Made by a program: the position numbers and the translations under genes
Origin: a virus
IMG/VR virus record: IMGVR_UViG_3300043137_000143
Strand: one strand, 5' to 3'
Length of the DNA: 40,070 nucleotides
The notes under the pieces: model-generated
What the model was told of the DNA's origin: nothing
Seen by the model: only the letters and a program-made list of their open reading frames with translations
The model's database searches: none
Shown here: positions 3,911 through 28,507 of the stretch, one piece after another
Numbering within the stretch: position 1 is the first letter of the stretch
How the letters are laid out: each line of letters opens with the position of its first letter

Positions 3911-4241
3911 GATACCACAGTGCAAGGTGTGCGGAACAGAATTCGATAACATCTTCGATGCCGTCAATCATCTTATGGATGATGAGGAAGATGTCTTCGA
4001 CCCAATCCTTAAGTTGCCTAATGGTTACTCGTTGATGCTCGGTTCCTTATTAGAGGAACTCTATCACTCAGCAGATGATGCAGATAGAATCAGAGACATT
4101 ACTGAGATGACATACGCAACTCTGTACGCCGCTCAAACAGACTTAACTCAAATGAAAGAGTTAGTAGAAGAAGCAATTATTAAGCAGCACATGGTAGATA
4201 TTGATGATGAATTAAAAGAACTACTAGAGGAGGACGAATGA
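3903..4241 (+). CDS. Hypothetical acidic protein with N-terminal CxxC...H zinc-finger-like motif
   Basis: 112 aa, CKVCGTEFDNIFDAVNH then a D/E-rich helical sequence. It apparently starts at a TTG overlapping the primase stop. Confidence 0.55.
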   Translation: MIEIPQCKVCGTEFDNIFDAVNHLMDDEEDVFDPILKLPNGYSLMLGSLLEELYHSADDADRIRDITEMTYATLYAAQTDLTQMKELVEEAIIKQHMVDIDDELKELLEEDE

Positions 4242-4534
4242 GCATCAAGCGTGAGTTACATCTTGAGACGCATCTAAGTAATACAACCAACGAGTTAACA
4301 GAATTGTTGGTCAGCAAGCATAGAGATTACGGTCCAAAGAATATCTCACTAGCCCCTGGCGGTGCTATCAATGGACTACGGGTACGAATGCATGACAAGT
4401 TAGCGCGTATCAATAACCTAGTTGATAGCGGTGCAGACCCAGAGCATGAGTCATTAGAGGATTCATTTAAGGATATGGCAAACTATGCAATCATCGGATT
4501 GCTAGTACTGAGAGGACAGTGGGATAACGAATGA
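4238..4534 (+). CDS. Hypothetical all-helical protein, DUF1599/MazG-like pattern (recall-based)
   Basis: 98 aa, KHRDYGPKN...GLRVRMHDKLARINNL. ATGA overlap and a GAGGAGG RBS. Confidence 0.4.
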   Translation: MSIKRELHLETHLSNTTNELTELLVSKHRDYGPKNISLAPGGAINGLRVRMHDKLARINNLVDSGADPEHESLEDSFKDMANYAIIGLLVLRGQWDNE

Positions 4535-6595: not shown

Positions 6596-7021
6596 TTATC
6601 CATAAATCTCCCATCGTTCATGTTCTTCGAACTCAGCAATCTCTCTACCTCTGGCCATACGAACGTGCTCTATCAATTGGCCAGGGGTAATGAGGTAGCC
6701 ACGTGAAGGGTTAGGTGGGATGTTGCAAGTGATAGGTCTACCACTCTCCCAGATAATCTCCTTGAGTCTATGCAATGGAACTATAAGTACCGAATCTTCT
6801 AGTACGAATCCCCAATGCGTAGCCCGACTAACTCTGATGCCAGATGGCTTCCAAGCATCTTCGTTAACGTAGTAACACTCGGTTTCAATGTAGAGATTAC
6901 CAGTCTGTACCCATTTCCTGTCTGTCTTAACCTCTACAGTATCAATGTGTAGCAAGTCTGCGACCTTGCTCTCACCTATCATCCCGTCTCTAAAGTCTAA
7001 GTCCCAGTTACTATCTTTCAT
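6596..7021 (-). CDS. Hypothetical protein, possible PD-(D/E)XK-like motif; last gene of the leftward operon
   Basis: 141 aa, GESKVADLL...TVEVKTD...NLYIE. TAATG coupling to the upstream small gene. Confidence 0.55.
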   Translation of the reverse strand: MKDSNWDLDFRDGMIGESKVADLLHIDTVEVKTDRKWVQTGNLYIETECYYVNEDAWKPSGIRVSRATHWGFVLEDSVLIVPLHRLKEIIWESGRPITCNIPPNPSRGYLITPGQLIEHVRMARGREIAEFEEHERWEIYG

Positions 7022-7308: not shown

Positions 7309-7700
7309 TAGTACCAACCTTTCCGTTCGTGAAACTTCCATGCCATACAAGGCGTGCCATACCTATGCATAATGTAGGCGAAGCCTCTGTCAATCTGTAA
7401 TGGTGCTGGTGTCTTAGGGTCTAACCCCAGTATCTGTGGGATACCGCCAGCATTCTTACCCATTACCTTTACCTTATTGTACGCTTCCGTTCGCCAGTTG
7501 GACTCCTGTGTCCATAGTTTATCTAAGCACTCGTACTGGTTAGCAGCCCAAGTAAGTACTACATCTTGAGCATAAGCCTTGCTATCTTCGATAGCCCATT
7601 CCCTTACTGGTAACGGAGTCTCCTCCGTTCGGCTAACCGAACGAGTAAACGCGAATAACACCACTGCTACAACTACAAGTGCAATTACTTTCTTGGTCAT
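7308..7700 (-). CDS. Secreted or membrane-anchored SLT-like lytic transglycosylase
   Basis: N-terminal signal anchor MTKKVIALVVVAVVLFAF, then CLDKLWTQESNWRTEAYN...GGIPQ...YGTPCMAWKFHERKGWY (E-S catalytic motif and GIPQ). Confidence 0.65.
   Translation of the reverse strand: MTKKVIALVVVAVVLFAFTRSVSRTEETPLPVREWAIEDSKAYAQDVVLTWAANQYECLDKLWTQESNWRTEAYNKVKVMGKNAGGIPQILGLDPKTPAPLQIDRGFAYIMHRYGTPCMAWKFHERKGWY
7625..7640. promoter_or_regulatory. Operon palindrome, copy 1
   Basis: gttcggctaaccgaac. It is intragenic, encoding RSVSRTEE of the SLT-like ORF. Confidence 0.6.
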
Positions 7701-8020
7701 ACTGGTACCTCAATCCAAGGTCTAAGCGCTCTGTAACTTATGAGTGCTCGTCCCTCATCAGATAATTTATTGAACCTCTTGCCAGTCATGATGACACGCT
7801 CACCTGCAAGTGTACCACCCCAGATGCCGAATGCCAAGTTTTCTGGTTGCATACCTTGGTCTAGACATTCCTCCTGTGCAGGGCATGAGTTACATAGGGC
7901 GATGGCCCTACCTGCCTCTTGTCCTATCGGTGCTAGTCGCTTGGGTGTGGGTGCGCCAACTGGCACCTCTGGATACCAAGCATCGGGGTTACTATCCCCT
8001 GTGCAGTTACCTCTAATCAT
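7697..8020 (-). CDS. whiB: WhiB-like Fe-S transcription factor
   Basis: C-x36-C-x2-C-x5-C followed by GIWGG. N-terminus CTGDSNPDAWYPE. The start is chosen at ATG 8020 behind GGGGAG; the track's 8056 start is a TTG. Confidence 0.85.
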   Translation of the reverse strand: MIRGNCTGDSNPDAWYPEVPVGAPTPKRLAPIGQEAGRAIALCNSCPAQEECLDQGMQPENLAFGIWGGTLAGERVIMTGKRFNKLSDEGRALISYRALRPWIEVPV

Positions 8021-8144
8021 CTCCCCACATCCTGTCTGGTTCTCCGTCGTAGTCAACTAGGTCGTCAAGTGTATCCTCGTCAAGTTCCTCGTACTCATCA
8101 TCTAACTCGAATACATCGTCATTCAATGGCGGTTCGTAACTCAT
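8013..8144 (-). CDS. Hyper-acidic small protein (43 aa, 20 D/E)
   Basis: Hand translation: MSYEPPLNDDVFELDDEYEELDEDTLDDLVDYDGEPDRMWGDD. TAATG coupling upstream, and its end overlaps the whiB start by 8 nt. Confidence 0.5.
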   Translation of the reverse strand: MSYEPPLNDDVFELDDEYEELDEDTLDDLVDYDGEPDRMWGDD

Positions 8145-8299
8145 TACCCCTCCAATTCGTATGAAGCATAGTCGGCAAACTCCTGACCATACTCATCTAC
8201 TGTGATGTCGTGTGCCACTCGTAGGGCTTGCGCCTCGTTCTCTACATCTTCGACAGTAAGCCATTCCTCATACTTAATCTTCACTCGCATTGTATTCAT
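8144..8299 (-). CDS. Hypothetical small protein (51 aa)
   Basis: Hand translation: MNTMRVKIKYEEWLTVEDVENEAQALRVAHDITVDEYGQEFADYASYELEG. TAATG overlaps at both ends. Confidence 0.5.
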   Translation of the reverse strand: MNTMRVKIKYEEWLTVEDVENEAQALRVAHDITVDEYGQEFADYASYELEG

Positions 8300-8430
8300 T
8301 ATGCCACCTCTCGTAGTAGTAATCGGACTTGCGCTATCTTCCTATCAACTTGTACATCTGTCTGTGCGGTAAGTAGTTGCAGGTAGTCTATCAGGACTTC
8401 CCGTAACTGTTCTCTTTCTTGTACTGTCAT
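8299..8430 (-). CDS. Hypothetical small protein (43 aa)
   Basis: Hand translation: MTVQEREQLREVLIDYLQLLTAQTDVQVDRKIAQVRLLLREVA. An AGGAG RBS overlaps the upstream stop. Confidence 0.5.
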   Translation of the reverse strand: MTVQEREQLREVLIDYLQLLTAQTDVQVDRKIAQVRLLLREVA

Positions 8431-8437
8431 GATGCTC

Positions 8438-8656
8438 CTATCCTGCGTTGTGCGAGGGTACAAATATACGGTACACCTCTACATTTGTCAATTCCTTACC
8501 CCACTCTAGGGCAAGTTCTTTGGTATCGAATGGTCCGTAGTGGACAAGTCCGTCTATGGTTTGTGTCGAGGTAATCCACCCAGCCACCCACATTCCTCTG
8601 AATGGGTCTGTCTGTTCGGTTAACCGAATACTAGAATCCGAAGTTGAAGTACTCAT
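8438..8656 (-). CDS. Hypothetical protein, start uncertain (8656 or 8593)
   Basis: The conserved-looking part is MWVAGWITSTQTIDGLVHYGPFDTKELALEWGKELTNVEVYRIFVPSHNAG. The track start at 8752 would overlap the amidotransferase gene by 122 nt. Confidence 0.5.
   Translation of the reverse strand: MSTSTSDSSIRLTEQTDPFRGMWVAGWITSTQTIDGLVHYGPFDTKELALEWGKELTNVEVYRIFVPSHNAG
8614..8629. promoter_or_regulatory. Operon palindrome, copy 2
   Basis: gttcggttaaccgaat, just downstream of the amidotransferase stop (8631-8633) and 20 nt upstream of ATG 8593. Confidence 0.6.
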
Positions 8657-9467
8657 TGTAGTAGCCAACCTTACCCTTCTTGTTAGATGCGTATCGGTCA
8701 GACTCAGGTGTCCAGCATAGGCAGGTATCTTGGTACATGCCATCGCAGTCATAGCAAGTAAAGCACATCTCGCAATAGTACGGATTAGAGTCTGCTTCTG
8801 CCGTACTTAGGCAGTGAGCGCAACCAACTGTCTCGTAATCATTACTGTCATTGAGTGCTACGGCAGATGACTTACTAGGCGTACCTAGATAGGTAGACCA
8901 TGATGATTGCTTGTAGGTAGAGTTAGACCACCACATGCCCTCATTGTCCCAGTGACCAGCAGTCTCGTTGACAATGTAGCATGTCTCCTTGGCGTTAGGG
9001 TCAAGCGTGAACACTACAATCTTGCTACCAGTAGACCACTTGCTAAGCATAGCCCATACATGGTCATCATCTAGCGCAGTGACACCACCCATGGCAGGTA
9101 AGGTATCCTCTGCAAAGATACGCGTGTCACTTCGTCGGTCGCCTGCACTGATGTTGATGTCAAGGATACCGTTGTGTGCAAGGTATGTATCGTGTGAGTT
9201 AGGCACTCGGAATGGGTGACAGTTGTCCTCATTCTTGACACCATGCGTAGCAAAGCGAGCATGGAACATAGCGTAACTATCTGGATACTGCTTGCGTACT
9301 TCTAGGAACTGCTTGATTACTTTCTTGCTTGACATGCCACGACCAGTGACAATGCCATTAGGTGTGACAACGGCAAAGCCGAAGCCATGCGGGTTATTAC
9401 ATGATGCACATTCCAAGTCCTTCTTACGAGGCGTGGAATTAGGCGAGGCTACAACGAGTAGGCACAT
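8631..9467 (-). CDS. Class-II (Ntn, Cys1) glutamine amidotransferase-like protein with a Cys-rich C-terminal tail
   Basis: MCLLV (Cys right after Met), HGFGFA, HARFATHG, CHPF, LAHNGIL. C-terminal CAHC, CEMCFTCYDC, CLC. Confidence 0.7.
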   Translation of the reverse strand: MCLLVVASPNSTPRKKDLECASCNNPHGFGFAVVTPNGIVTGRGMSSKKVIKQFLEVRKQYPDSYAMFHARFATHGVKNEDNCHPFRVPNSHDTYLAHNGILDINISAGDRRSDTRIFAEDTLPAMGGVTALDDDHVWAMLSKWSTGSKIVVFTLDPNAKETCYIVNETAGHWDNEGMWWSNSTYKQSSWSTYLGTPSKSSAVALNDSNDYETVGCAHCLSTAEADSNPYYCEMCFTCYDCDGMYQDTCLCWTPESDRYASNKKGKVGYYNEYFNFGF

Positions 9468-10720
9468 TAGTTGCTCACATTCTGTTCGGCTAACCGAACG
9501 ACTAGTTTATCTATACGGGCTGATAGTTCTGGATACAAGTCTTCATGTTGGAAGATGTACCACATGAATAAGTCTGCACTAAGCGCACCTTGCGCTACAT
9601 CTTGGACAGTAAGGGTTCGGGTGTACTCAACACTGGCATGTGCTAAGTCTAATTGGGCTTTGATAGTCTCACCGTTGACAGTACCTCGGAAGATACGCAT
9701 CTCTAGTGTCTCGCGGTTGTTGGTATTGACTGCTGAATAGCGGTCGCTATTGCGGTCAGGTTGCAACTTGTGCATGAAGGTACGCTTGGTCTCTATCTCA
9801 TAAAGCATGCCACTGCTCGGTGCTGCTTCTATGCGGTTGCCGTCAGCATCACGCTTGTACTCACGCTGATAGATGTCAGTGAACTTAGCCCATTGGTCAG
9901 ATGTCCGACCTGCTAGGGTCTGATAGAACTCAGGGTTAGAATACACAAGGTTAAGGAAGCGGTGCATGTGTGCGCCACCACTAAACCCAGTGCGTGAGAT
10001 GTGGATGTGTAAGCCACAAGTACGAGTATCCCATGACTTGACTCGATAGGTTGGATTAGTACGCAACTGCTCTAATACAGTCCAGAACTCTTGCGCTTCT
10101 TGCTTGAAGAAACCATGAGACATGGGATGCGTAACTATCTCGAACCCGTTATTAAGCGAGCCGTCATTCTTAAGATACGCTAGGTCTATTGCTTCTAGTT
10201 GCTGTGCATAAGAGGCAGATTCTAACTTGTTATCCCCTGCTTCTACCTCTATCTCTAGCCCGAAGTACAGACGCTCGTTCTTGTCGGTACTATGGAAGAT
10301 AGCATCAGGTCGGTATGAATAGTCATGAATGATGCGACCAGCACCATCATCATCACACCTATCGCAACCATCGGCATTGTACTCGTCGCAATCGTCACAC
10401 CAGTAAGCACCTCGGTCGGTGCAATCCTGACACCAGTGCTCACCTCTGTCTGCGACTCCGGAAGTGCCATTCGAGTTGTATTCCTCACATGACTCGCACC
10501 AATAGGCTCGTCTCTCGGTACATGATTCGCACCATAGATAGTCACCATCTACCATGTGGAAACAGTCATCAGTCGAGCCGATAGAGTCGCAACGCTGGCA
10601 AATCTGCACGCAATCGTCACACACTATACTGTCATACTCTGTATGAATGACATTATCGGCATCAATGTCGGTACTACACACCGCACATTCTGATGTCACT
10701 TTATCATTTACATCTGACAT
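9467..10720 (-). CDS. Amidoligase_2-family (glutamine-synthetase-like) enzyme with an N-terminal array of about four zinc ribbons
   Basis: YFGLEIEVE, NDGSLNNGFEIVTHP, CGLHIHISR, ETLEMRIFRGT. Eight CxxC pairs lie in the first ~125 aa. The stop overlaps the amidotransferase ATG (TAATG). Confidence 0.7.
   Translation of the reverse strand: MSDVNDKVTSECAVCSTDIDADNVIHTEYDSIVCDDCVQICQRCDSIGSTDDCFHMVDGDYLWCESCTERRAYWCESCEEYNSNGTSGVADRGEHWCQDCTDRGAYWCDDCDEYNADGCDRCDDDGAGRIIHDYSYRPDAIFHSTDKNERLYFGLEIEVEAGDNKLESASYAQQLEAIDLAYLKNDGSLNNGFEIVTHPMSHGFFKQEAQEFWTVLEQLRTNPTYRVKSWDTRTCGLHIHISRTGFSGGAHMHRFLNLVYSNPEFYQTLAGRTSDQWAKFTDIYQREYKRDADGNRIEAAPSSGMLYEIETKRTFMHKLQPDRNSDRYSAVNTNNRETLEMRIFRGTVNGETIKAQLDLAHASVEYTRTLTVQDVAQGALSADLFMWYIFQHEDLYPELSARIDKLVVRLAEQNVSN
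9484..9499. promoter_or_regulatory. Operon palindrome, copy 3
   Basis: gttcggctaaccgaac, in the last codons of the amidoligase (VRLAEQN) and 16 nt upstream of the amidotransferase ATG. The minus strand continues CCGAAC-AGA-ATG. Confidence 0.6.
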
Positions 10721-10735
10721 TTTGTTACCTTTCTC

Positions 10736-10751
10736 GTTCGTTTAACCGAAC
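10736..10751. promoter_or_regulatory. Operon palindrome, copy 4 (one arm degenerate)
   Basis: gttcgtttaaccgaac, 15 nt upstream of the amidoligase ATG at 10720. Confidence 0.5.
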
Positions 10752-10785
10752 AGTCGAAACCATTGCGATTTGCAATAGCACTATT

Positions 10786-10956
10786 CTAACCCTTAACTAA
10801 GTTCTTGTCAATTACGGCATTGGCTAACACATCTCTAGCCTCTTCAACTACTTTTGCCAGCCCAGCGTAGCCTTGCTTGACCATGCGGTCATGCTCAGCC
10901 CGAAGTGCCTGCCTCACAAGACTAGCCTGTGCATCAGTAAACTCGACAGTAATCAT
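10786..10956 (-). CDS. Hypothetical small protein (56 aa)
   Basis: Hand translation: MITVEFTDAQASLVRQALRAEHDRMVKQGYAGLAKVVEEARDVLANAVIDKNLVKG. ATGA overlap with the upstream stop. Confidence 0.5.
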   Translation of the reverse strand: MITVEFTDAQASLVRQALRAEHDRMVKQGYAGLAKVVEEARDVLANAVIDKNLVKG

Positions 10957-11138
10957 CTCTGATAACTCATGACAGTCTCGAATACCGCGTCATCTAATTG
11001 GTCAATGAGAGATTCCCATTCGCTGACCGATAGGTCATGCCCGAGGATTTCTTGGACAAGTTGGTAGTCAAGGCGCGACTCCCAGAGAGTGTTTGTGTCG
11101 GAAACTTCCGCCACCAGTTCATCTGCGGTTGGGTACAT
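10953..11138 (-). CDS. Hypothetical acidic protein (61 aa)
   Basis: ORF-track entry. Its ATG immediately follows the upstream TAA. Confidence 0.55.
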   Translation of the reverse strand: MYPTADELVAEVSDTNTLWESRLDYQLVQEILGHDLSVSEWESLIDQLDDAVFETVMSYQR

Positions 11139-11282
11139 TTACTTAGCCTCTCTTAGTTGGCGACGAAGTTTAGTCGTCTGCTTCTCTAGCACATAGATTC
11201 TGCGGAACGCTAAGACTAGAACAACATTAACTGCGAATAGTGCGAGTGTTACTGCGAACACATCACTTGTTTGTAGGTACAT
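11139..11282 (-). CDS. Small membrane protein (47 aa, one TM helix and a basic tail)
   Basis: Hand translation: MYLQTSDVFAVTLALFAVNVVLVLAFRRIYVLEKQTTKLRRQLREAK. AAGGAG RBS. Confidence 0.5.
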   Translation of the reverse strand: MYLQTSDVFAVTLALFAVNVVLVLAFRRIYVLEKQTTKLRRQLREAK

Positions 11283-11302
11283 TACTTACTCCTTTACATG
11301 CC

Positions 11303-11318
11303 GTTCGGTTAGCCGAAC
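11303..11318. promoter_or_regulatory. Operon palindrome, copy 5
   Basis: gttcggttagccgaac, 20 nt upstream of ATG 11282, with AAGGAG between them. Confidence 0.6.
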
Positions 11319-11463
11319 AGATGATAACGCTTTGTTATCACGCGCTCACCGCAAGACTCGCACTTGCGTAACTGCCTATCATGAGCCACCAGCCTAACAC
11401 CTGCCCAAATTCAGGGTAGGCTATCCGCTAAGGTCTTTAGTCTAACATCAAAAGAAGTATGGG

Positions 11464-11607
11464 TCAAGCCTGTTCAATGTTGCTCGCTTCACGCATGGCT
11501 TGAACGCCACGCTCATAACGCTCACGCTCTGCACGCTTCTCATTCAGAATGTTGGTCTGAACTTCAAGGTGTGCGCTTAGGTCTAGGTCAATCATGTCCA
11601 TCTCCAT
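11464..11607 (-). CDS. Hypothetical small coiled-coil-like protein (about 43-47 aa)
   Basis: Hand translation: MEMDMIDLDLSAHLEVQTNILNEKRAERERYERGVQAMREASNIEQA. Three in-frame ATGs are possible; the third has GGAG upstream. Confidence 0.45.
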   Translation of the reverse strand: MEMDMIDLDLSAHLEVQTNILNEKRAERERYERGVQAMREASNIEQA

Positions 11608-11610
11608 TCT

Positions 11611-11626
11611 GTTCGGTTAGCCGAAC
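11611..11626. promoter_or_regulatory. Operon palindrome, copy 6
   Basis: gttcggttagccgaac, 3 nt from ATG 11607 (CCGAAC-AGA-ATG on the minus strand). Confidence 0.6.
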
Positions 11627-11704
11627 GAGTTATAGGTTAGCAACAAGGCAGGAGCCTCGCTGATAGACATTAGTCTACACCATGAAGAAGTTTCTGTCTA
11701 TCGT

Positions 11705-11720
11705 GTTCGGTTAGCCGAAC
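11705..11720. promoter_or_regulatory. Operon palindrome, copy 7
   Basis: gttcggttagccgaac, in the non-coding gap 94 bp upstream of copy 6. Confidence 0.6.
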
Positions 11721-11815
11721 GCTACATAGTTCGGTGGCATGTGTCGCTCGTATGTCGGTGGCATTGGTCGGTCGTTATTCGGTTTGTGTTGGTTTGTGTT
11801 GGACAATTTTTGGGC

Positions 11816-11847
11816 AAAAAAATAACCCCGCTCCCGAAGGAGCGAGG
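11816..11847 (-). terminator. Rho-independent terminator after the first leftward gene
   Basis: Minus-strand RNA: CCUCGCUCC-UUCG-GGAGCGGGG followed by UUAUUUUUUU. The one imperfect pair is a G-U on the minus-strand transcript but a C-A mismatch on the plus-strand one, which fixes the orientation. Confidence 0.8.
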
Positions 11848-11861
11848 CTATTCTCTTTGGC

Positions 11862-12488
11862 TTATGCCATAGCACCAACCTTTGATTCAATAGCCGCATG
11901 GATTTCAGCTATTTGGTCTAACTGATTCTCGCTCAATTCCTCAAAGTTCAATGCGGTGAAGTAGGCGAGAATCTCCGCGAGCGTATCTTTTGGAGCCTTT
12001 GGAGACTTCTCGCTCTTTGGGGTCTTGTTGCTCTTGTCGTTCTTAGCCTTGCGAATGGTAGCGATTTCCTTTTGGAGCGCGTCTAGGGTCTTAATCTGCT
12101 CACCCTTGCCCGCGCCTAGTAGGTCATAACTCGCGCTCGCGGTAGATAGTTGCTTAGCGATAGGCAGGGCGCGAAACTCAGCATGAAGTGAGCGTAACTT
12201 TGACCATGTAGGGAGCGCGGGAGCGTGGCTAGACTTCACGAAAGAGGACACCTTGCCCGAATCCTCTAAGCCTTTTATGAATCGCTTTTGGTCATTCACT
12301 GATAGGCGAGATTCTAAGACCATTGTCGCGGATAGATTCTCAATCGCTTTAATGATGTCGGATTCCGACTTAGCAGAAGTTGAGCATACTGAAGACCAAG
12401 CGCTTACCAACTTTGGAGCCTTAATTGTTACGGTGTTCTTTGGAGCCTTTGTTGTGTTCTTTGCTGTTGCCATTTGGGTTATTTCCAT
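11862..12488 (-). CDS. Hypothetical protein (208 aa), first gene of the leftward unit, with its own terminator
   Basis: Long ORF with a K/T/P-rich N-terminus and an internal KNDKSNKTPKSEKSPKAPK stretch. No fold recognised. The start may be 12488 or the ATG at 12473. Confidence 0.7.
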   Translation of the reverse strand: MEITQMATAKNTTKAPKNTVTIKAPKLVSAWSSVCSTSAKSESDIIKAIENLSATMVLESRLSVNDQKRFIKGLEDSGKVSSFVKSSHAPALPTWSKLRSLHAEFRALPIAKQLSTASASYDLLGAGKGEQIKTLDALQKEIATIRKAKNDKSNKTPKSEKSPKAPKDTLAEILAYFTALNFEELSENQLDQIAEIHAAIESKVGAMA

Positions 12489-12491
12489 TCT

Positions 12492-12507
12492 GTTCGGTTA
12501 GCCGAAT
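12492..12507. promoter_or_regulatory. Operon palindrome, copy 8
   Basis: gttcggttagccgaat, 3 nt from ATG 12488 (CCGAAC-AGA-ATG on the minus strand). It shares the 21-nt string ctgttcggttagccgaatggg with copy 9. Confidence 0.6.
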
Positions 12508-12625
12508 GGGGCGGTGTTGCCCGATTTGGTAAGAGAATCGTACCATGGCAAAAGGTTTTGCAACACCATAGGCGGGCGGGCGCGGGCGGGAATCTAGGCG
12601 GGCGCGTGAGCCTGAGCATGAGCCT

Positions 12626-12641
12626 GTTCGGTTAGCCGAAT
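12626..12641. promoter_or_regulatory. Operon palindrome, copy 9
   Basis: gttcggttagccgaat, 134 bp upstream of copy 8 in the control region. Confidence 0.6.
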
Positions 12642-13167
12642 GGGTAGCGGATAAGTAGTTGAAAGTTCAACCATCTCCCGCCTATCTATCTGCGCTGCAA
12701 TTTATTTATTTATTACGGGGGCAATTCATTTATGAAGTGACCGCATTGGATAGTTACTCTCACACAATTAAAACATGCACACAATAACGCCAGAATAAGC
12801 GCATAAGCGCTATCTTTGACCCGAGGTTTATTAAAAAGCGAGGTGTTATTATATATATACTCCCATAATTATTTTCTGTTATATTTAATCCCCCCCCTCA
12901 GAGTACTAAAAGTACTCCTCGGAGAGTGTGACTTACGTCACATCGTGAGCGTAAGATATGCGGGTCTGGGAAAATACTTTCCCAACCCACTCGGAAAAGA
13001 CCCGTTTGAACGGGTCTTCTATAGTATATAGATTAATATATACGGAGTCGCTCCGTTTAAGACTCCGCTCCTCCTATATATATAGATTTTGAAATTTTTT
13101 TTTAAGGATGCCACCCTTATGCCGTTTAGAGGGTACGTTAAATCGGCGTTAGAGGACAGGATATAAC

Positions 13168-15033
13168 ATGGGACGCAAGGCTGGAAAACAGACGTATGGT
13201 AAGGAAGAGGCGCAAGCCAAAGTCCTAGCCCTACTAGAACAAGGTGCCACCGTCACCGCTGCTATGGCAGCCGTTGACCGCCAGGACACCGCCTTCCGCC
13301 AGTGGTCTATGGCAGATGCCGACTTCAAAGAGAAGGCTGATAAAGCCCGCCTTGCGGGTAAGGGCATCAAACAAGATTTAGCAGAACTTAAGGATATGCC
13401 TTTCCATGAGTTCTCAGAGCAGTTCCTAGACTCTAGGCTCTTTCCACATCAGTTGAACTGGATTGACCTCATTGAGGGTAAAGAACCTAGATGGCTACCC
13501 CCTGGTATGACTTATGAACCAGGAGACCCTAACCGTGTCTTGATTAACGTGCCACCTGAGCACGCCAAGTCAACCACTATCACGACTAACTACGTGACCT
13601 ACAAGATTGTGACCAACCCTAACACGCGAGTGATTATCGTGTCTAAGACTCAGGGTATGGCTCGCAAGTTCCTAGGCGCTATTAAGACGCGTCTTTCCCA
13701 CCCTGGCTACATGAAACTACAGACGGCCTTCGGCCCTAATGGTGGGTATAAGGCGGATGCAACACAATGGTCCGCCGACATGATTTATCTAGGCACAGGT
13801 CGAGATTCTGGTGAGAAGGACCCAACCGTTCAAGCCCTAGGCTTCGGGTCTCAGATTTACGGTGCTCGCGCCGACCTGATTATCCTCGACGACGTGGTGA
13901 TGGGTTCTAACGCCCATGAGTGGGAAAAGCAGATTGAGTGGCTGCAGAAGGAAGTTATCACCCGTCTGGGACGACATGGTAAACTTATTATTGTAGGTAC
14001 TCGCGTATCATCTGTAGATTTGTACAAGATGATTCGTGATGGTGGACAATGGACAGGTGGCAAAAGCCCCTTTACTTACTGCGCTATGCCAGCAGTTTTA
14101 CAGTTCGATGATAAACCTAAGAACTGGAAGACTCTTTGGCCTGAGACGGACCAACAGGAAAACGATTTAGATGAGGTTTTGGAAAATGGCTTATACCCGA
14201 AATGGGATGGACCCTCGCTCTTTAAGCGTCGCTCTGAGGTCGCTCCGTCTGTTTGGGCTATGGTCTACCAACAGGAAGATGTCCAAGAAGACTCAATATT
14301 CTCTCCAACCTGTGTGGCTGGCTCAGTCAACGGAATGCGAAAAAGAGGACCTCTAAAAGCAGGTACTCCTGGACATCCCCAACATGTTGAAGGTTATACC
14401 ATTATCGGTCTTGACCCTGCTATGGCAGGTGCTACAGGAGCGGTGGTTTGTACTTACAACCGAGCAGATGGACGTATCTACGTCCTAGACTGTGTGAATA
14501 TGACTGACCCAAGCCCAGCAAAGATTCAATCTTTGATTGAGGAATGGGTTGAGAAGTATCGTCCACAGGAACTGCGTATTGAAATTAACGCACACCAGAA
14601 GGCGTATGCCTTAGACGATGACTTAAGAGCATATCTTGCATCCTATGGATGCCAACTCAACTCTCACTTTACTGGCAAGAATAAATGGGACACGTCTTTT
14701 GGTGTTGCGTCTATGTCTATGCTATTTGGAAATACCAGAGATGGTAGATTCCAAGACAACAACATTATCGAACTACCAAGTAATGAAGGTTCTGAAGGTC
14801 TGAAGACCTTGGTACAGGAACTAATTACCTGGAAGCCAGATACTAAGAACCCAACAGACTGCGTTATGGCACTCTGGTTTGCTATTATCCGCATCCGCGA
14901 GATGATGCAACAGAGCAGTAATGCATCTAAATGGATGCAGAACCGCTGGACAACCCAGGCACAAGCATCTAGACGACATGCAGTAAATTTAGACGAAGCC
15001 TTTGCAGAGCAATGGTCGCAAACATACGGTTAG
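13168..15033 (+). CDS. terL: Terminase large subunit with an N-terminal small-terminase-like HTH extension
   Basis: Walker A-like PPEHAKST, Walker B LIILDDV and a GTR coupling motif, with a C-terminal nuclease-sized domain. The first ~65 aa (AQAKVLALLEQGATVTAAMAAVDRQDTAFRQW) look like an HTH. It is the first gene after the control region. Confidence 0.85.
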   Translation: MGRKAGKQTYGKEEAQAKVLALLEQGATVTAAMAAVDRQDTAFRQWSMADADFKEKADKARLAGKGIKQDLAELKDMPFHEFSEQFLDSRLFPHQLNWIDLIEGKEPRWLPPGMTYEPGDPNRVLINVPPEHAKSTTITTNYVTYKIVTNPNTRVIIVSKTQGMARKFLGAIKTRLSHPGYMKLQTAFGPNGGYKADATQWSADMIYLGTGRDSGEKDPTVQALGFGSQIYGARADLIILDDVVMGSNAHEWEKQIEWLQKEVITRLGRHGKLIIVGTRVSSVDLYKMIRDGGQWTGGKSPFTYCAMPAVLQFDDKPKNWKTLWPETDQQENDLDEVLENGLYPKWDGPSLFKRRSEVAPSVWAMVYQQEDVQEDSIFSPTCVAGSVNGMRKRGPLKAGTPGHPQHVEGYTIIGLDPAMAGATGAVVCTYNRADGRIYVLDCVNMTDPSPAKIQSLIEEWVEKYRPQELRIEINAHQKAYALDDDLRAYLASYGCQLNSHFTGKNKWDTSFGVASMSMLFGNTRDGRFQDNNIIELPSNEGSEGLKTLVQELITWKPDTKNPTDCVMALWFAIIRIREMMQQSSNASKWMQNRWTTQAQASRRHAVNLDEAFAEQWSQTYG

Positions 15034-15040
15034 GATACCA

Positions 15041-16813
15041 ATGGCATTATCAATGGAACAGGTTGCAGCACGCGTCGAAGCGTTGCGCTACCGTAATCAT
15101 GAACGAGATGCTCGTAATCTAAGCGTACTTGCAGTTCGTAAGGGACAAATTTCACAGGTCTACCCTGAGTTCTTCCCAGAGGGTGTAGATGCTAACGTAG
15201 TTGCTAACTTCATTGACGTAGTAGCACGTGACCTTTCAGAGGTTATGGCACCGCTACCAGCAATTAACTGCTCTGCTGCTAACTCCGTTAGCGACAAGGC
15301 ACGTAACTTCGCTGATAAGCGTACACGTATTGCTGCTAACTACTTCTCACACTCTGACCTATCAGTACAGATGTACTCAGGTGCTGACTGGTATCTAACA
15401 TATGGTTTCGTTCCTTTCATGATTGAATTGGACGAAGAAAGCAAGTTGCCGCGTATTCGCGTAGAAAATCCAATCGGGGCTTACCCAGAATTCGACCGCT
15501 ACGGACGCTGTGTGGCATTTGCAAAGCGCTACATGATGACTCTTGGAGAACTAGTAACACAGTTCCCAGAGTATGAGACTCAAATCCTTGGTCGTGACGG
15601 ATACACACAGGACCTGCACGCTCAGGTCGAGATGGTTCGTTACTACGATAAGGACCAGTCAGTAATTTACTTACCCAAGAAGGGTAATCTAGTTTTATCT
15701 CGCGCAGCCAACCCGCTGGGCAAGATGATGGTTGTCGTGGCGCGTAAGCCGTCTATTGATGGCGAGATGCGTGGACAATTCGACGACGTATTAGGTATTC
15801 AACTTCTTCGCAACCGTTTCGCTTTATTGGCAATGGAAGCAGCGGAGAAGAGTGTTCAGGCACCAATCGTATTACCACAAGACGTACAAGAACTCCAGTT
15901 GGGTGGCGATGCGGTTATCCGTACCGCCAACCCAGCGGGCGTTCGTCGTGTCGAATTAAACATTCCACAAGGCGCGTTCACGGAAGCACAACTCCTTAAT
16001 CAAGAACTTCGCTCAGGTACTCGTTATCCAGAAGGACGTTCTGGTAACATTGATGCAAGCATCGTTACTGGTCAAGGCGTACAAGCACTCATGGGTGCAT
16101 TTGATACACAGGTTAAGTCAGCACAGGCAATCTTTGCATCTGCACTACGCGATGTAGTATCTCTATGTTTTGAGGTAGATGAGAAGGTTTACGCAGAAGA
16201 AAAGACCATTCGTGGTGTTGACTCTGGTTCTCCTTACGAGATTACATACAAGCCAACTAAGGATATCAAGGGTGATTACTCTGCAGATGTCCGTTATGGT
16301 ATGCTCGCTGGTCTTAACCCAGCACAGGGACTTATCTTTATGCTACAGGCTCTTGGTGGAGGACTAATCTCCAAGGACATGGCAATGCGTGAACTACCAT
16401 TCACTGTCAATGTTACTCAAGAACTTGAGAAGATTGAAATCGAAAACATGCGTTCATCACTTCTAAGTGGTATTACTGCAATGGCTCAGGCTATTCCAGC
16501 AATGGCTACATCAGGTGGAGACCCATCATCTATCGTAACTAAAATTGCAGGAGTTATTAGCGCAAGGCAAAAGGGACAGGCTTTGGAAGAAGCAGTTGCT
16601 AATGTGTTTGCTCCTCAGCAACAAGTTCCTCCTGCTGGGGCGGCAACTTCTCCTGTTGAGCAGCCGTCCCCTGCTCCAGGCGCGGCTCCAGTAGGAGGCT
16701 CTCCCGCAGATATGGGAATGGCACCTCCAGCAGCAGCACCAGATATCCAAACTATTTTATCTACCCTTAGCGGTAGCGGCAAGGCAACGGGACGAGTAAC
16801 AACTAGGGGATAA
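15041..16813 (+). CDS. Portal protein
   Basis: About 590 aa directly after terL, with a P/A-rich C-terminal tail. The start is taken at the ATG behind AGGA just past the terL stop (the track start at 15002 overlaps terL by 32 nt). Confidence 0.75.
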   Translation: MALSMEQVAARVEALRYRNHERDARNLSVLAVRKGQISQVYPEFFPEGVDANVVANFIDVVARDLSEVMAPLPAINCSAANSVSDKARNFADKRTRIAANYFSHSDLSVQMYSGADWYLTYGFVPFMIELDEESKLPRIRVENPIGAYPEFDRYGRCVAFAKRYMMTLGELVTQFPEYETQILGRDGYTQDLHAQVEMVRYYDKDQSVIYLPKKGNLVLSRAANPLGKMMVVVARKPSIDGEMRGQFDDVLGIQLLRNRFALLAMEAAEKSVQAPIVLPQDVQELQLGGDAVIRTANPAGVRRVELNIPQGAFTEAQLLNQELRSGTRYPEGRSGNIDASIVTGQGVQALMGAFDTQVKSAQAIFASALRDVVSLCFEVDEKVYAEEKTIRGVDSGSPYEITYKPTKDIKGDYSADVRYGMLAGLNPAQGLIFMLQALGGGLISKDMAMRELPFTVNVTQELEKIEIENMRSSLLSGITAMAQAIPAMATSGGDPSSIVTKIAGVISARQKGQALEEAVANVFAPQQQVPPAGAATSPVEQPSPAPGAAPVGGSPADMGMAPPAAAPDIQTILSTLSGSGKATGRVTTRG

Positions 16814-16814
16814 A

Positions 16815-17381
16815 ATGACTACGTTAGTAGCGATACAAGGTGACGGTTGGTCGGTACTAGGGTGTGATTCACGTTTAAGTGATGAGCATGGTCGTTTTCA
16901 GATAAGCAAAACCCCCAAGATTGTAGATAACAACGGCGTATTAATTGCTGGTTGTGGCTCATCACGTGCTAGTAACGTGTTGCATTATGGTTATAAACAA
17001 CCTAAGCCTACTGCTCAAGAAGACTTAAATACCTACATGACACAGAAGTTCATACCAGCAATGCGTAAGAACTTTGTAGATGCAGGTATTGATATGAAAG
17101 AGGACGGCGATGTTGCACAAATCGATGGGGGATTCCTCATCTCGGTTAAAGGACAAGTGTTCTCGGTTTCTGAAGATTACTCTTGGGATACCGATGTTCG
17201 CAATGTATACGTTATGGGTAGTGGTGGCGATGTTGCCCTCGGCGCATTGGCAGCGTTGGGTGTGGAAAAAGTAAAGACAATTAACCAAGCGGAGACAATG
17301 ATTCGTAAAGCAATTGCTATTGCAATCCAATACGATAACATGTGCTCAGAACCAATTCATATCTTTAGACAATTTAAGTAG
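16815..17381 (+). CDS. HslV/proteasome-beta-like Ntn threonine peptidase at the prohead-protease position
   Basis: MTTLVAIQGDGWSVLGCDS aligns without gaps to E. coli HslV TTIVSVRRNGHVVIAGDG (Thr1, Gly10, Asp17). A Lys lies near position 33, with LIAGCGSS and MGSGGDVALGALAAL (the GSGG motif). Confidence 0.7.
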   Translation: MTTLVAIQGDGWSVLGCDSRLSDEHGRFQISKTPKIVDNNGVLIAGCGSSRASNVLHYGYKQPKPTAQEDLNTYMTQKFIPAMRKNFVDAGIDMKEDGDVAQIDGGFLISVKGQVFSVSEDYSWDTDVRNVYVMGSGGDVALGALAALGVEKVKTINQAETMIRKAIAIAIQYDNMCSEPIHIFRQFK

Positions 17382-17389
17382 GAGGAACA

Positions 17390-17851
17390 ATGGCTGTAGA
17401 GAATCGTGGCGGTGCCAACGGTGGACCGCAGTACAATCCTGCCAACGTTTCAGGTGTAGGCGGAGCAGGCCAGAGTGGCAATTACACTGGCTTTGCATAC
17501 GGACAAAACCAAGCAGTAAACAATCAGCGTATTGAGGGTAATCAAGCAGTGGCTACAACTAAAGCAGCAGGTATCCCTTCATCAGAAGCACCATACGGTG
17601 GAGTTAATATGTCACCTCTAGGTAGTTTGCTAGATGATACTACTAATCCAGCAGAACCAATTACTGCTGGTGTAGACTTTGGCCCTGGTCCTGGTTCAGA
17701 AGCGCTACCTCAAGGCTTCATGAATAACACTCGTCCAGATGAAAATGCAATGATTGTAAAGCAGTACTTGCCAGACTTGGCTATGGCTGCACAGTCTAAG
17801 GACGCTCCAGATTCATTCAAGCGTTTCGTTAACTTTTTATTGGCACAATAA
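17390..17851 (+). CDS. Hypothetical virion-module protein with a G/N/Q-rich N-terminus
   Basis: 153-aa ORF with an AGGAGG RBS. No motif recognised. Confidence 0.6.
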   Translation: MAVENRGGANGGPQYNPANVSGVGGAGQSGNYTGFAYGQNQAVNNQRIEGNQAVATTKAAGIPSSEAPYGGVNMSPLGSLLDDTTNPAEPITAGVDFGPGPGSEALPQGFMNNTRPDENAMIVKQYLPDLAMAAQSKDAPDSFKRFVNFLLAQ

Positions 17852-18060
17852 TGGCAGATGTATATTGGATGCCTGGAAGTCTGTTTGACAACATTGATAA
17901 GTTTGCCAACTCGCTTGGCTACCAGAATGCTGCAATAGCATTAGAACTTGCAATGATGCCTTGGAAGTCACCAGATGAGCGTGATGCTTTTATCACTGGA
18001 ATCACTGGCGAAGATGTCAAAGGTGGCACAGAGAAAAACTACATTAAACAAAATTTTTAG
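17851..18060 (+). CDS. Hypothetical protein
   Basis: 69-aa ORF with a TAATG overlap with the upstream gene. Confidence 0.55.
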   Translation: MADVYWMPGSLFDNIDKFANSLGYQNAAIALELAMMPWKSPDERDAFITGITGEDVKGGTEKNYIKQNF

Positions 18061-18069
18061 GGGGTAGCG

Positions 18070-23088: not shown

Positions 23089-23089
23089 T

Positions 23090-25974: not shown

Positions 25975-26093
25975 ATAGAATCCTGAACGGACCCATCGGC
26001 CCCGTCAGCGTAATAGACCGATAGCAAGAGCCAGCCTAGTTCCCCGACTAGCAACTGAGGCTTGCGACTACAACGAATAGAAGGGTGGTTGCT

Positions 26094-26570
26094 ATGAGCA
26101 ACAACTACTGGGATGACGAAGACGACGACCTCGATACAGAAACACCAATGGACGGCAGTGACTTATTAAAGAAGTTACGCAAAGCCAAGCGTGCGGACGA
26201 AAAGCGTATCAAAGAACTCACAGACCAACTTGAGACACTATCCAAGGGACAGCGTGAGCGAATCGTCAAAGAAACCCTAGAAAAGAAAGGTGTGAATCCT
26301 AAGGCAATTCGATTAGTCCTAAAGGACTTGGATGAAGTTAACGAAGAGACAGTGAATAACTGGCTCGATGATAACGCAGACTTGTTTGGACTAGAAGTTC
26401 GCCAGGATGCACCAGAAGTAAACAGCCAAAATCGTGCGGCACTACGCCAGCAAGACTTGGTTACTCAAGGTGCATTAACACCTGATAGAGCCGAAGACAT
26501 GGGTATGAGAATTGACAACGCAGAATCTGCGGAAGAAATCATCAACATGATTTACGGTTCACAAAACTAA
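26094..26570 (+). CDS. Scaffolding protein candidate
   Basis: About 158 aa, acidic N-terminus (DDEDDDLD), a charged helical middle, and a position directly upstream of the capsid gene. The ATG at 26094 behind AAGGG is preferred over the GTG at 26085. Confidence 0.6.
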   Translation: MSNNYWDDEDDDLDTETPMDGSDLLKKLRKAKRADEKRIKELTDQLETLSKGQRERIVKETLEKKGVNPKAIRLVLKDLDEVNEETVNNWLDDNADLFGLEVRQDAPEVNSQNRAALRQQDLVTQGALTPDRAEDMGMRIDNAESAEEIINMIYGSQN

Positions 26571-26606
26571 TCATAGTTTCTAACTACAAAAAAGGAAATA
26601 ACCTAA

Positions 26607-27560: not shown

Positions 27561-27574
27561 TTGATTGACGGTTG

Positions 27575-27598
27575 AGCAGGGGGAGCAATCTCCCTGCT
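27575..27598 (+). terminator. Stem-loop after the capsid gene (attenuator or stabiliser; no clear U-tract)
   Basis: AGCAGGG(GG)AG-CAAT-CTCCCTGCT. Confidence 0.35.
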
Positions 27599-27626
27599 TA
27601 GCAGTAAATCCATTAGGAGGATAAAC

Positions 27627-28505: not shown

Positions 28506-28507
28506 TT

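Follow-up and report, generated by a model that had tools for sequence, protein, structure and literature searches.

The closest precedent for the locus described here is an unexplained repeat of the Cluster O mycobacteriophages. Corndog and its relatives carry the 17-bp repeat 5'-TGTTCGGNNNCCGAACA in 34 copies over the whole genome, structural genes included (Cresawn et al. 2015, PMC4351075), and the authors of that work found insertions and deletions bounded by the repeats and proposed, as we do below, a dimeric DNA-binding protein (PMC4351075). No functional study of the repeat was found in the literature searched. Dispersed sites are also known as the stoperators of Cluster A phages, which belong to immunity repressors of the L5 gp71 type (PMC6550527, PMC9283540). 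The window analyzed here, a 40,070-nt stretch of DNA from a freshwater actinobacterial phage, contains a 16-20 bp palindrome, RTTCGG-YTAR-CCGAAY, in nine copies that all lie at 7.6-12.7 kb in one leftward operon. The initial annotation of the window saw no close precedent for this element, a view that has to be given up because the Cluster O repeat has the same GTTCGG/CCGAAC arms around a spacer of 3 bp, compared to 4 bp here (PMC4351075).

A motif scan places the copies at 7627, 8614, 9484, 10736, 11303, 11611, 11705, 12492 and 12626, the positions that had been picked out by eye, once it is allowed that the earlier start at 7625 took in two flanking bases. The scan also agrees with the earlier impression that there is no copy outside these nine in the 40 kb. 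Comparison with shuffled sequence, proposed with the initial annotation as a check, shows strong enrichment: GTTCGGNNNNCCGAAC has five exact matches against 0.00 expected from 100 dinucleotide shuffles, and with up to two mismatches it has nine, against 0.61 +/- 0.80 in the shuffles (maximum 3). TTCGG-N4-CCGAA is the commonest short palindrome in the window. Given a 127-bp direct repeat at its end, the window is the whole genome (~39.9 kb, complete), and thus the confinement of the palindrome to the leftward operon holds genome-wide.

All features of this operon are on the minus strand. Copy 1 (ATTCGGCTAACCGAAC in the transcribed strand, 12626-12641) is upstream of the predicted promoter P1 and has no adjoining start codon. 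P1 (12537-12563), as read from the sequence, consists of TTGCAA (12563-12558), a 15-nt spacer and an extended -10 element, TGgTACGAT (12545-12537), whose TAnnnT keeps its alignment column through changes of sequence in 10 relatives. Copy 2 (12492-12507) covers about +24 to +39 from P1 and leaves 18 nt to the ATG at 12473 of gene 1 (11862-12473, 203 aa). The gene 1 ORF can also be read from 12488 as 208 aa. An intrinsic-terminator-like hairpin with a T run (11816-11857, arms 11816-11834 and 11839-11857) follows gene 1, so that the strong terminator suspected between two units stands as a prediction. Copy 3 (11705-11720) ends 4 nt upstream of the -35 hexamer of the predicted promoter P2 (TAGACA-17-TAGACT, 11672-11700; TTGACA in many relatives), an arrangement kept in 16 relatives at 4-5 nt. 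Copy 4 (11611-11626), in the P2 5' UTR, adjoins the Shine-Dalgarno sequence GGAG, with 15 nt between its end and the ATG at 11595 of gene 2 (11464-11595, a putative protein of 43 aa), which has copies 3 and 4 upstream and copy 5 downstream.

Between copy 5 (11303-11318) and the ATG at 11282 there are 20 nt, and the copy is preceded by 146 nt of free non-coding space and by a covarying hairpin, GATAAC..GTTATC. The predicted promoter P3 (TTGACA-17-TAGAAT, 10783-10811) is within a coding region and despite this is kept in 8 relatives; copy 6 (GTTCGGTTAAACGAAC, with one arm mismatch, 10736-10751) lies at about +25 to +40 from it, 15 nt short of the amidoligase ATG. Copy 7 (9484-9499) is in the final amidoligase codons (encoding ..VRLAEQ..), where it had already been noticed, and ends 16 nt before the ATG at 9467 of a glutamine-amidotransferase-like gene. 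For copy 8 (8614-8629), the start is 1 nt from the preceding stop codon and the end is 20 nt short of the ATG at 8593. Copy 9 (7627-7642), the intragenic copy reported earlier in the transglycosylase (SLT) gene, occupies codons 20-25 of that ORF between the membrane anchor and the catalytic domain, and some relatives (L160, L162) have an in-frame ATG 13 nt downstream of it. Two more predicted promoters, at 8491-8463 and 7837-7809, have no palindrome downstream.

Six of the nine copies (2 and 4-8) therefore abut a Shine-Dalgarno sequence and end 15-20 nt before a start codon; the initial annotation had the number right and the distance, given as 3-20 nt, wrong. Its further idea of leaderless or Shine-Dalgarno-less initiation at starts reading AGA-ATG does not stand, since in relatives the upstream ATG is either missing or soon closed by an in-frame stop (atg gag taa). 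The homologues begin at downstream ATGs, 15-20 nt past the palindrome and each with a Shine-Dalgarno sequence, and their lengths according to the gene caller are 198-203 aa for gene 1, which sets the start used here, and 43-44 aa for gene 2. Judged from these homologues, the two AGA-ATG codons are not true starts.

About 60 related metagenomic contigs, from relatives of the 'Ca. Planktophila' phages, retain the palindrome in its positions while the flanks have diverged; conservation in related phages was among the checks proposed with the initial annotation. At these sites there are at least eight variant classes, such as GGTCGG-CYRG-CCGACC and TGTCGGG-YTAG-CCCGACA. Usually one class is common to all the sites of a genome, and the copies, copy 1 included, switch together; the exceptions are L163 (copy 6) and L172 (copy 9), each with one copy of another class. 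A direct view of such a switch is given by copy 7, where the window and L162 have identical flanks (agaatgtgagcaacta) and differ in the arms by T2>G and A15>C. In class II genomes one palindrome is at the gene 1 3' end, before the terminator.

The class of the palindrome fits gene 1 in all 33 informative contigs. Mean identity of the gene 1 protein is 73.7% within classes and 39.7% between them (between-class maximum 53%), whereas for the nine other proteins compared it hardly depends on class (within/between e.g. 72.1/71.5, 65.7/64.0 and 62.1/63.0), with between-class maxima of 86-100%. Gene 1 is thus the only one of these ten proteins that tracks class, and the gene 2 protein has no class structure. 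Phages E7 and F5 of Planktophila have neither the palindrome nor a gene-1 homologue that could be found. The suggestion of a DNA operator for a phage regulator had come with four candidates, and class tracking favors the one listed as the 208-aa first gene. The other three, WhiB, the FmdB-like protein and the sigma-like factor, are all also present in the motif-less E7 and F5, and WhiB, when measured across classes, does not track the palindrome class.

A palindrome that changes in step with one gene is probably the set of sites of a regulator, and on this comparative evidence the gene 1 product likely reads the palindromes. The divergence of gene 1 is not only a matter of specificity, as in class IV identity can fall to 36% with the palindrome little changed. 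The protein has an all-helical core with a lysine-rich N-terminal tail and linker and KAPK-type tails, and the tails count for an operator reading. Its AF2 model is confident (pLDDT 91) but had no match in PDB or BFVD, and there was no Pfam, PHROG or NCBIfam match. The lack of a recognizable DNA-binding domain or fold, including a helix-turn-helix match, counts against operators.

The target of the protein is probably double-stranded DNA. Dyad symmetry extends over ~20 bp and includes what would be the loop of a hairpin: in class I, T8 and A9 are near-invariant, positions 7 and 0 are Y and positions 10 and 17 are R, and the central step is pyrimidine-purine (TA, CA or TG) in all variants but one (AG or CT). 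Within a class the arm variation is symmetric and independent. Pair (1,16) is GC 70, GU 23, AC 17 and AU 5 times, with A-C mismatches about as frequent as G-U, pair (0,17) is C-A in 56 of 117 contexts, and the covariation score is 0.122 compared to 0.130 in shuffles. By comparison, compensatory changes are present in neighboring hairpins of these alignments. This combination of strict conservation without covariation, which the initial annotation took as the mark of a protein-binding site, argues for DNA. Additional support comes from copies 1 and 3, which are upstream of conserved predicted promoters with no nearby start and are still conserved and class-switching, and from the class II copy before the terminator.

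Our full proposal is that the palindromes are dispersed DNA operators through which a dimer of the gene 1 protein auto-represses the early operon, a statement that as a whole has in our view an even chance of being right. The leftward operon is taken to be the early operon, predicted from gene content only. Host RNA polymerase would initiate at P1, P2 and P3, which are predicted to be of the sigma-70 type, and as the gene 1 protein builds up it would bind as a symmetric dimer to double-stranded Y-RTTCGG-YTAR-CCGAAY-R. Copies 1 and 2 around P1 and copies 3 and 4 around P2 could then give autoregulation and promoter repression, and copies 2 and 4-8, in 5' UTRs and between cistrons, could be roadblocks to the elongating polymerase; those with a predicted promoter lie at about +25 to +120. 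The net outcome would be an operon turned down during infection; the repressive sign is predicted and is an evenly balanced call. Fitting less well with operators are the two predicted promoters without a downstream copy and the odd-class copies of L163 and L172.

The strongest alternative, which we consider unlikely, is that the gene 1 protein acts on RNA, binding the palindrome where it folds in the operon mRNAs into a hairpin with a 6-7 bp stem and a 4-nt loop. The bound hairpin could turn the translation of each cistron down or up, mark sites of processing, or serve to load an N-like antiterminator that carries transcription past the gene-1 terminator. This role has to be considered because six copies abut ribosome-binding sites, and they do so even where there is free non-coding space, a placement that a DNA roadblock does not need and that counts against operators. 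Copy 7 is even retained in a coding region just before the next start. The hairpin is predicted to fold in 5 of 7 contexts tested, the joint change of the arms between classes also preserves pairing, and gene 1 comes first with a strong predicted terminator behind it, as does N of lambda. The center is biased in orientation relative to transcription (CTAA 50 versus TTAG 27 unique contexts in class I; six CCAG and no CTGG in L160, a class II genome), which again counts against operators. However, orientation shows no link with ribosome-binding-site adjacency (p = 0.14), and centers are flipped at adjacent sites and in one copy of L213; these findings count for DNA. The Corndog right arm differs from the window phage group in showing such a correlation (p = 2.5e-4), which, as evidence from a look-alike, counts for RNA and against operators. 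An RNA reading also leaves copies 1 and 3 and the dyad symmetry of the loop without a role, and a stem that is invariant around a variable loop is the opposite of what known hairpin-binding proteins read.

Operators would remain the preferred reading when compared to three further explanations. The palindromes could mark module boundaries or serve recombination, in the manner of T4-type phages with their promoter-stem-loop cassettes, and so favor the shuffling of genes, with gene 1 unrelated or directing the recombination. The mosaic genomes with one foreign-class copy (L163, L172), the placement at gene boundaries and the insertions and deletions bounded by the Cluster O repeats (PMC4351075) fit this, but it does not account for both arms of every copy tracking one protein or for the paired copies around promoters. 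As a nuclease or recombinase signature is absent from gene 1, and recombination may be a side effect of any repeat, we consider it very improbable. Equally doubtful is that the phage exploits operators of a host ('Ca. Nanopelagicales') transcription factor, which would explain why a classical repressor is not recognizable among the phage genes. A scan of 185,579 species' genomes gave, among the matches listed, only scattered singles in unrelated taxa, and by estimate many matches are expected by chance; the two Planktophila matches are at the same spot in an apparent coding sequence (..VRLAE..); eight specificity classes tracking a phage gene in near-identical phages are also hard to reconcile with a host factor. 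A purely structural hairpin without a trans factor, stabilizing the mRNA or insulating ribosome-binding sites, is suggested by the position directly 5' of these sites and by other such hairpins in the same leaders, but is just as improbable, as it should covary freely and the palindrome is instead invariant within a genome and class and changes only in step with gene 1.

If the operator proposal is true, these otherwise near-identical genomes would hold at least eight operator/regulator specificities, much like immunity types, and a phage could evade being shut off by a relative's regulator, whether that relative co-infects the cell or infected it earlier.

How far this resembles known systems depends on the feature compared. 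Cluster O phages have 70-kb GC-rich genomes, infect Mycobacterium and are unrelated to the window phage; their 34 genome-wide copies compare to nine in one operon, the family profile detects no gene-1 homologue in Corndog, and co-varying protein and specificity classes are seen here and not described there. The sites themselves are alike: both have invariant arms and a varying A/T-rich center, about a third of the copies here share T..A at the next position out, both are enriched in a leftward operon of non-structural genes, where they occupy short gaps between genes close to gene 5' ends, and most Corndog right-arm copies are, as here, just upstream of a Shine-Dalgarno sequence and start codon. 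Cluster A stoperators share with our proposal many repressor sites dispersed in transcription units, mostly outside promoters, of which a few double as true promoter operators, and site motif and repressor (here a candidate) that diverge jointly among related phages. They differ in being asymmetric, oriented with transcription and read by a monomeric two-domain repressor, where the window sites are dyad-symmetric and gene 1 has no helix-turn-helix match, and in numbering 20-30 across the genome. Cluster A phages are also temperate, and no integrase was found among the window ORFs scanned, which lie outside the structural-gene block.

The repressor of phiC31, a temperate Streptomyces phage, is of a known gene family and binds ~17-bp conserved inverted repeats (CIRs) in many intergenic early-region copies. 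As in our proposal, these are multicopy inverted-repeat operators in the early region of an actinophage, with a sequence and regulator unrelated to those here. In contrast to the present sites, the 6 operators of lambda Cro form two clusters and do not accompany every cistron, and lambdoid boxB is recognized by its loop, which is the variable part of the present element, the stem being fixed. Neither system is similar in sequence or fold, but the organization would be comparable under our proposal: the first gene of the early operon acts at sites beside the early promoters, and among mosaic relatives both regulator and site split into specificity types.

The palindromes that the initial annotation had picked out in the leftward operon form a real, non-random and conserved cis-element system. 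There are five exact matches to GTTCGGNNNNCCGAAC in the window against 0.00 expected from 100 shuffles. With up to two mismatches there are nine, at the positions that annotation had proposed, against 0.61 ± 0.80 (at most 3 in any of 100 shuffles). We number them copy 1 to copy 9, from 12626 down to 7627 on the minus strand. All nine fall within 5 kb of one operon, none is found outside 7.6-12.7 kb in the complete genome, and no other short palindrome is as common in the genome. All nine copies have a 4-bp spacer (YTAR), as do nearly all of 117 related contexts.

Other repeats were seen in the window as well. A further palindrome, GTTGAActTTCAAC, is located at 12658-12671, immediately upstream of copy 1, with a similar form in the related contigs L003, L018 and L034. 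Between copies 1 and 2 there is a very GC-rich stretch, 12560-12625 (-), in which GCTCACGC-type repeats occur in degenerate form together with at least four C-tracts (cccgcccgcgcccgcccgcc), giving the opposite strand the potential for a G-quadruplex; comparable GC-rich stretches were seen after copy 1 in most of the relatives and other classes that were examined. The sequence CCRACACAAAC stands twice in tandem at 11782-11805 (-), past the terminator of the first gene, and also directly past copy 8 in L005, L012, L015, L019 and L020. A CACCGAC-type direct repeat is found upstream of copy 3. The rightward structural region carries seven copies of GCAGC-N4-GCTGC (24418, 29650, 29821, 30913, 33245, 33608 and 35425), which may be mere codon or repeat composition.

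The window ends in a 127-bp direct repeat (1-127 and 39944-40070) and is thus a complete phage genome of ~39.9 kb, the contig being circularly closed or terminally redundant; its GC content is 46%. A WhiB-like protein, a sigma-like factor, a transglycosylase and an amidoligase/amidotransferase pair are coded leftward, and replication and tail/host-interaction genes rightward, where a long series of large ORFs opens with the large terminase. None of 50,697 phage records matched the region at the nucleotide level. The terminase is 82% identical to those of the Planktophila phages LanE43AprE7 and F5 (E7/F5 below), the nearest cultured relatives, with which phages of the freshwater acI lineage, 'Ca. 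Nanopelagicales', were first brought into culture (PMC10202952). The phage is apparently lytic; no integrase, ParA/B, repressor family or classical repressor was found among the ORFs scanned, which lay outside the structural-gene block 13168-29128 but for two small ORFs at its right end. An amidoligase (9467-10720), an Ntn-type amidotransferase-like protein (8631-9467), a DUF1599 'nucleotide modification associated' protein (4238-4534) and a glycosyltransferase (29941-30690) occur together, a set that suggests hypermodification of the phage DNA. The last gene of the operon, 6596-7021 (-), encodes a 141-aa member of phrog_13596 (unknown function) whose sequence reads like a PD-(D/E)xK nuclease core (..GES.., ..IDTVEVK..); it is present in contigs that carry the motif and missing from E7/F5. 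Searches of the small operon proteins against Pfam, PHROGs and NCBIfam returned nothing useful, and the 56-aa, 43-aa and 141-aa proteins matched nothing in a sequence search of PDB chains.

The placement of the copies relative to gene starts needed correction. In the initial annotation two copies abutted the first codon of their gene (CCGAAC-AGA-ATG), which was taken as a sign of leaderless initiation; the upstream sequences and homologue lengths of the relatives do not bear this out. Upstream of gene 1, the first gene of the operon (11862-12473 (-), 203 aa), relatives read CCGAAT-agaaaaggaactacccaaATG and the early ATG is missing. Upstream of gene 2 (11464-11595 (-), 43 aa), several read aga-atg-gag-taa-gac-ATG, where a stop comes soon after the early ATG. 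In the protein collection, the called lengths of homologues are 198-203 aa for gene 1 and 43-44 aa for gene 2. With the starts corrected, six copies end 15-20 nt before an ATG and are directly followed by a purine-rich SD-like sequence (e.g. AGAAAGG, GGAG or GTGAG), and three copies have no adjoining start codon.

The promoters predicted for the operon include P1, P2 and P3. P1, at 12563-12537 (-) between copies 1 and 2, reads TTGCAA-15-TGgTACGAT, and its -10 element is kept as TAnnnT in the same alignment column in ten relatives though the sequence varies. Gene 1 is followed by a predicted terminator-like hairpin with a T run, 11857-11816 (-). P2 (TAGACA-17-TAGACT, 11700-11672 (-)) begins 4 nt past copy 3 (4-5 nt in relatives) and ahead of copy 4, a layout kept in 16 relatives. 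P3 (TTGACA-17-TAGAAT, 10811-10783 (-)), ahead of copy 6, is conserved despite its position in coding sequence. Measured from the predicted transcription starts, this puts copies 2, 4 and 6 ~25-55 nt and copy 5 ~120 nt downstream, and copies 1 and 3 are upstream of predicted promoters, far from any start codon. Copy 5 is preceded by a conserved non-coding leader of ~110 nt, 11320-11432 (-), which follows a promoter-like site at 11467-11439. In this leader an acceptor-like stem (GCTCAC..GTGAGC) encloses a T-arm-like hairpin, GCAAG-TGCGAGT-CTTGC, which is GCAGG-TTCGATT-CCTGC in relatives; neither ARAGORN nor Rfam gave it a tRNA or Rfam identity, and its possible roles are those of a small RNA or of a tRNA-like processing signal. 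At its predicted 5' end the P3 transcript has a hairpin, ATTGC-aaatc-GCAAT (10758-10772 (-)), that looks like a 5'-terminal stabiliser.

To follow the palindrome in relatives, IMG/VR was searched with the gene 1 protein, the exact motif, the amidoligase and a gene 1 profile, and more contigs were fetched by exact protein, giving ~60 distinct related contigs. Relatives with the window's own version of the palindrome (class I) carry it at the same nine sites in diverged flanks. The 117 unique class I contexts show almost no variation at positions 2-6 and 12-15 and have T at 8, A at 9, C/T at 7, A/G at 10, G/A at 1 and C/T at 16, with Y at flank 0 and R at flank 17; the position just outside the GTTCGG arm is T in 40 of the 117 and its mirror position A in 77. 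These symmetric preferences mean that the dyad extends through what would be the loop of a hairpin, and dyad symmetry covers 16-20 bp of the site. Loop sequences differ (CTAA, TTAG, TTAA, CTAG), and within a class the stem is invariant. Where the arms do vary they change independently: the outer pair (1,16) is GC in 70 contexts, GU in 23, AC in 17 and AU in 5, and pair (0,17) is the non-pair C-A in 56 of 117. The covariation score of the 8-bp helix over 57 distinct 20-mers is 0.122 against 0.130 ± 0.013 in shuffles, of which 367 of 500 reach or exceed the observed value. The neighbouring hairpins do covary. The one before copy 6 changes from ATTGC/GCAAT to GTTGC/GCAAC among relatives, one of which (L012) has an unrelated hairpin in its place; in an alignment of 12 sequences, compensatory changes affect 8 pairs in the hairpin before copy 5 and the structured leader that precedes it, and none in the motif itself. 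The motif is thus constrained in its sequence and not merely in its structure.

Relatives found through the amidoligase have a different palindrome at the same sites. Among the versions seen are GGTCGG-CYRG-CCGACC, (T)GTCGGA-CTAG-TCCGAC(A), TGTCGGG-YTAG-CCCGACA and TGTCGGC-YA-GCCGACA and, from further contigs, GCGGGC-TA-GCCCGC, TGTCGGGA-AG/CT-TCCCGACA and ACGGG-YTAR-CCCGT; at least eight versions exist in near-identical genomes. At copy 7 the flank agaatgtgagcaacta is identical between the window and L162, and the arms differ at two mirrored positions. Copies within one genome are normally all of one class. Two mosaics with a single foreign-class copy were found, L163 with a class I copy 6 (position 5224) in a class II genome and L172 with a class I copy 9 (position 2572) in a class IV genome, and both look like remnants of recent recombination within the operon.

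One protein changes with the palindrome. In other classes the identity of gene 1 to the window protein falls to 30-44%, and there is no consistent drop for the terminase (81-97%), the amidotransferase-like protein (82-98%), the amidoligase (66-81%), the 43-aa protein (mostly 60-80%) or the phosphoesterase (70-98%). Class by class, gene 1 is at least 62% identical to the window in class I contigs, 45-50% in TGTCGGG.. contigs, 37% in GTCGGA.. contigs and 29-34% in GGTCGG.. contigs. Across 23 loci its identity is 73.7% within classes against 39.7% between them (between-class maximum 53%), whereas for nine other proteins within- and between-class identity are about equal and the between-class maximum is 86-100%. 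For the informative contigs of the profile search, from which the class-by-class figures come, the gene 1 clade gave the motif class every time (33 of 33). E7/F5 have neither the motif nor a gene 1 homologue, the family profile search included, and phages bearing the system are not yet in culture. Given this co-variation, the gene 1 product is probably the reader of the palindrome. Two other candidates were set aside: the divergence of WhiB has no class structure, and the 56-aa protein, considered as a ribbon-helix-helix regulator, is missing from many motif-bearing contigs.

The gene 1 protein has a helical core; its N-terminal tail and its linker are lysine-rich (KAPK-type). Its family comprises 46 clusters at 50% identity among 1.84 billion representatives, mostly near 200 aa, with shorter members matching part of the profile only. 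No match was found in Pfam, PHROG or NCBIfam, and tblastn against the phage records gave only noise. The AlphaFold2 model from a diverse alignment is all-alpha with a pLDDT of 91. Foldseek found nothing for it in the PDB (best E 0.24, TM 0.25) and nothing in BFVD for an earlier, weaker model; no E value for the two models fell below 0.2. The residues that discriminate the classes concentrate in ~20-100, with no single helix singled out.

As the target we favour double-stranded DNA read by a symmetric dimer, on several counts. The symmetry takes in the centre, whose middle step is pyrimidine-purine in each variant but one (centre AG or CT), and the outer positions degenerate independently and symmetrically, with A-C mismatches as common as G-U pairs. 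Whether a copy adjoins a ribosome-binding site shows no relation to the orientation of its centre (p = 0.14), and L213 has one flipped copy. Additionally, copies 1 and 3, upstream of predicted promoters, are still conserved and class-switching, and a class II copy stands at the 3' end of gene 1, ahead of the terminator. An RNA hairpin as the target is less favoured but deserves serious weight: it is predicted to fold, its asymmetric centre has an overall orientation bias, and six copies sit tight against ribosome-binding sites even where long leaders leave space. Other ideas were rejected. The actinobacterial LexA SOS box is TCGAAC-N4-GTTCGA, with half-sites CGAAC then GTTCG; here that order is reversed (GTTCGG-N4-CCGAAC), and where copies 2 and 3 have an extra CCGAAC half-site upstream, the spacing is 6-8 nt, not 4. 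An ECF-sigma promoter with CCGAAC as its -35 was rejected since a conserved -10 is lacking after it and transcription would begin only past the start codons. A host operator was dismissed, as the matches listed in a scan of the genome collection are only scattered single ones.

With DNA as the preferred target, binding of the gene 1 product at its sites would repress the operon, a direction suggested by the downstream positions of most copies and by the diversification into specificity types. Such diversification would be expected if it is costly for a phage to have the same regulator as a co-infecting relative. Our fullest reading is that gene 1 is the first member of a new protein family that binds nucleic acids sequence-specifically and has a fold absent from the PDB, and that it forms with its dispersed palindromic sites a rapidly diversifying 'immunity-like' regulator/operator system in apparently lytic phages of the most abundant Actinobacteria of fresh water, with at least eight interchangeable specificities upheld by competition among co-infecting relatives; we offer it tentatively, as somewhat more apt to fail than to hold. 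Dispersed palindromic repeats at gene starts have already been noted in actinophages, Cluster O among them, and for Cluster O, the one case checked, no function was found. The relatives amount to a natural experiment: near-identical genomes, at least eight repeat versions and exactly one co-changing protein among those compared. This yields a testable candidate pair of regulator and target, a candidate new DNA-binding fold and a set of putative orthogonal protein/site pairs. The hosts, 'Ca. Nanopelagicales', are among the most abundant freshwater bacteria and very little is known of the biology of their phages. A switch of specificity in a phage that seems to be lytic would implicate competition between phages in driving regulatory diversity.

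Several known systems can be compared with this one. It resembles the conserved inverted repeats of phiC31 and lambda Cro. The start-associated sequences of Cluster K are an asymmetric 13-bp motif containing the SD, a few bases before start codons, whereas the palindrome here precedes the SD and has three copies without an adjoining start codon. In lambda boxB, N reads a conserved loop and the stem can covary freely; here the loop varies and the stem is invariant within a class. Lambda nut sites lie in transcripts downstream of early promoters; relative to the predicted promoters here, copies 2, 4, 5 and 6 are downstream and copies 1 and 3 upstream. In its logic the system is like the Cluster A stoperators, whose dispersed sites and repressor diverge together (PMC6550527), as do the motif and gene 1, its putative binder, here. 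However, stoperators are asymmetric, 13-14 bp long, oriented with transcription and spread as 20-30 sites over both genome arms, against nine dyad-symmetric sites in one operon here, where flipped centres occur. They are also bound by a monomer that blocks transcription elongation, in temperate phages with an integrase or parABS and an L5 gp71-family repressor, and no L5 gp71-like repressor, integrase or ParA/B was found here among the ORFs scanned.

The closest match is the 17-bp repeat of the Cluster O mycobacteriophages, TGTTCGGNNNCCGAACA, with 34 copies in Corndog; the paper that describes it proposes a dimeric protein, is sceptical of a role in transcription and assigns no function (PMC4351075). 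A literature search found no later functional study of the repeat. Its arms, TGTTCGG/CCGAACA, share the identical core GTTCGG/CCGAAC (PMC4351075), but its spacer is 3 bp, mostly AAA or TTT, instead of 4 bp, its more than 30 copies are spread over the whole genome instead of nine in one operon, and the Corndog-like phage background is unrelated to the present one; the gene 1 family profile found no homologue in Corndog. As here, most copies in the leftward arm of Corndog (L215) lie just upstream of an SD sequence and a start codon. Over record positions 45000-69777 this is the case for 14 of 15 AAA-sense copies and 1 of 8 TTT copies (Fisher p = 2.5e-4); the 2015 Cluster O paper had judged repeat orientation not meaningful (PMC4351075). 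The system described here is not a member of the Cluster O, Cluster A stoperator, phiC31 or lambda Cro families. Its kind is known, and what is new is the symmetric sites confined to a single operon of an apparently lytic phage, the at least eight specificities and a putative regulator whose modelled fold is unmatched. If our reading is true, the same logic may explain the decade-old unexplained repeat of Cluster O.
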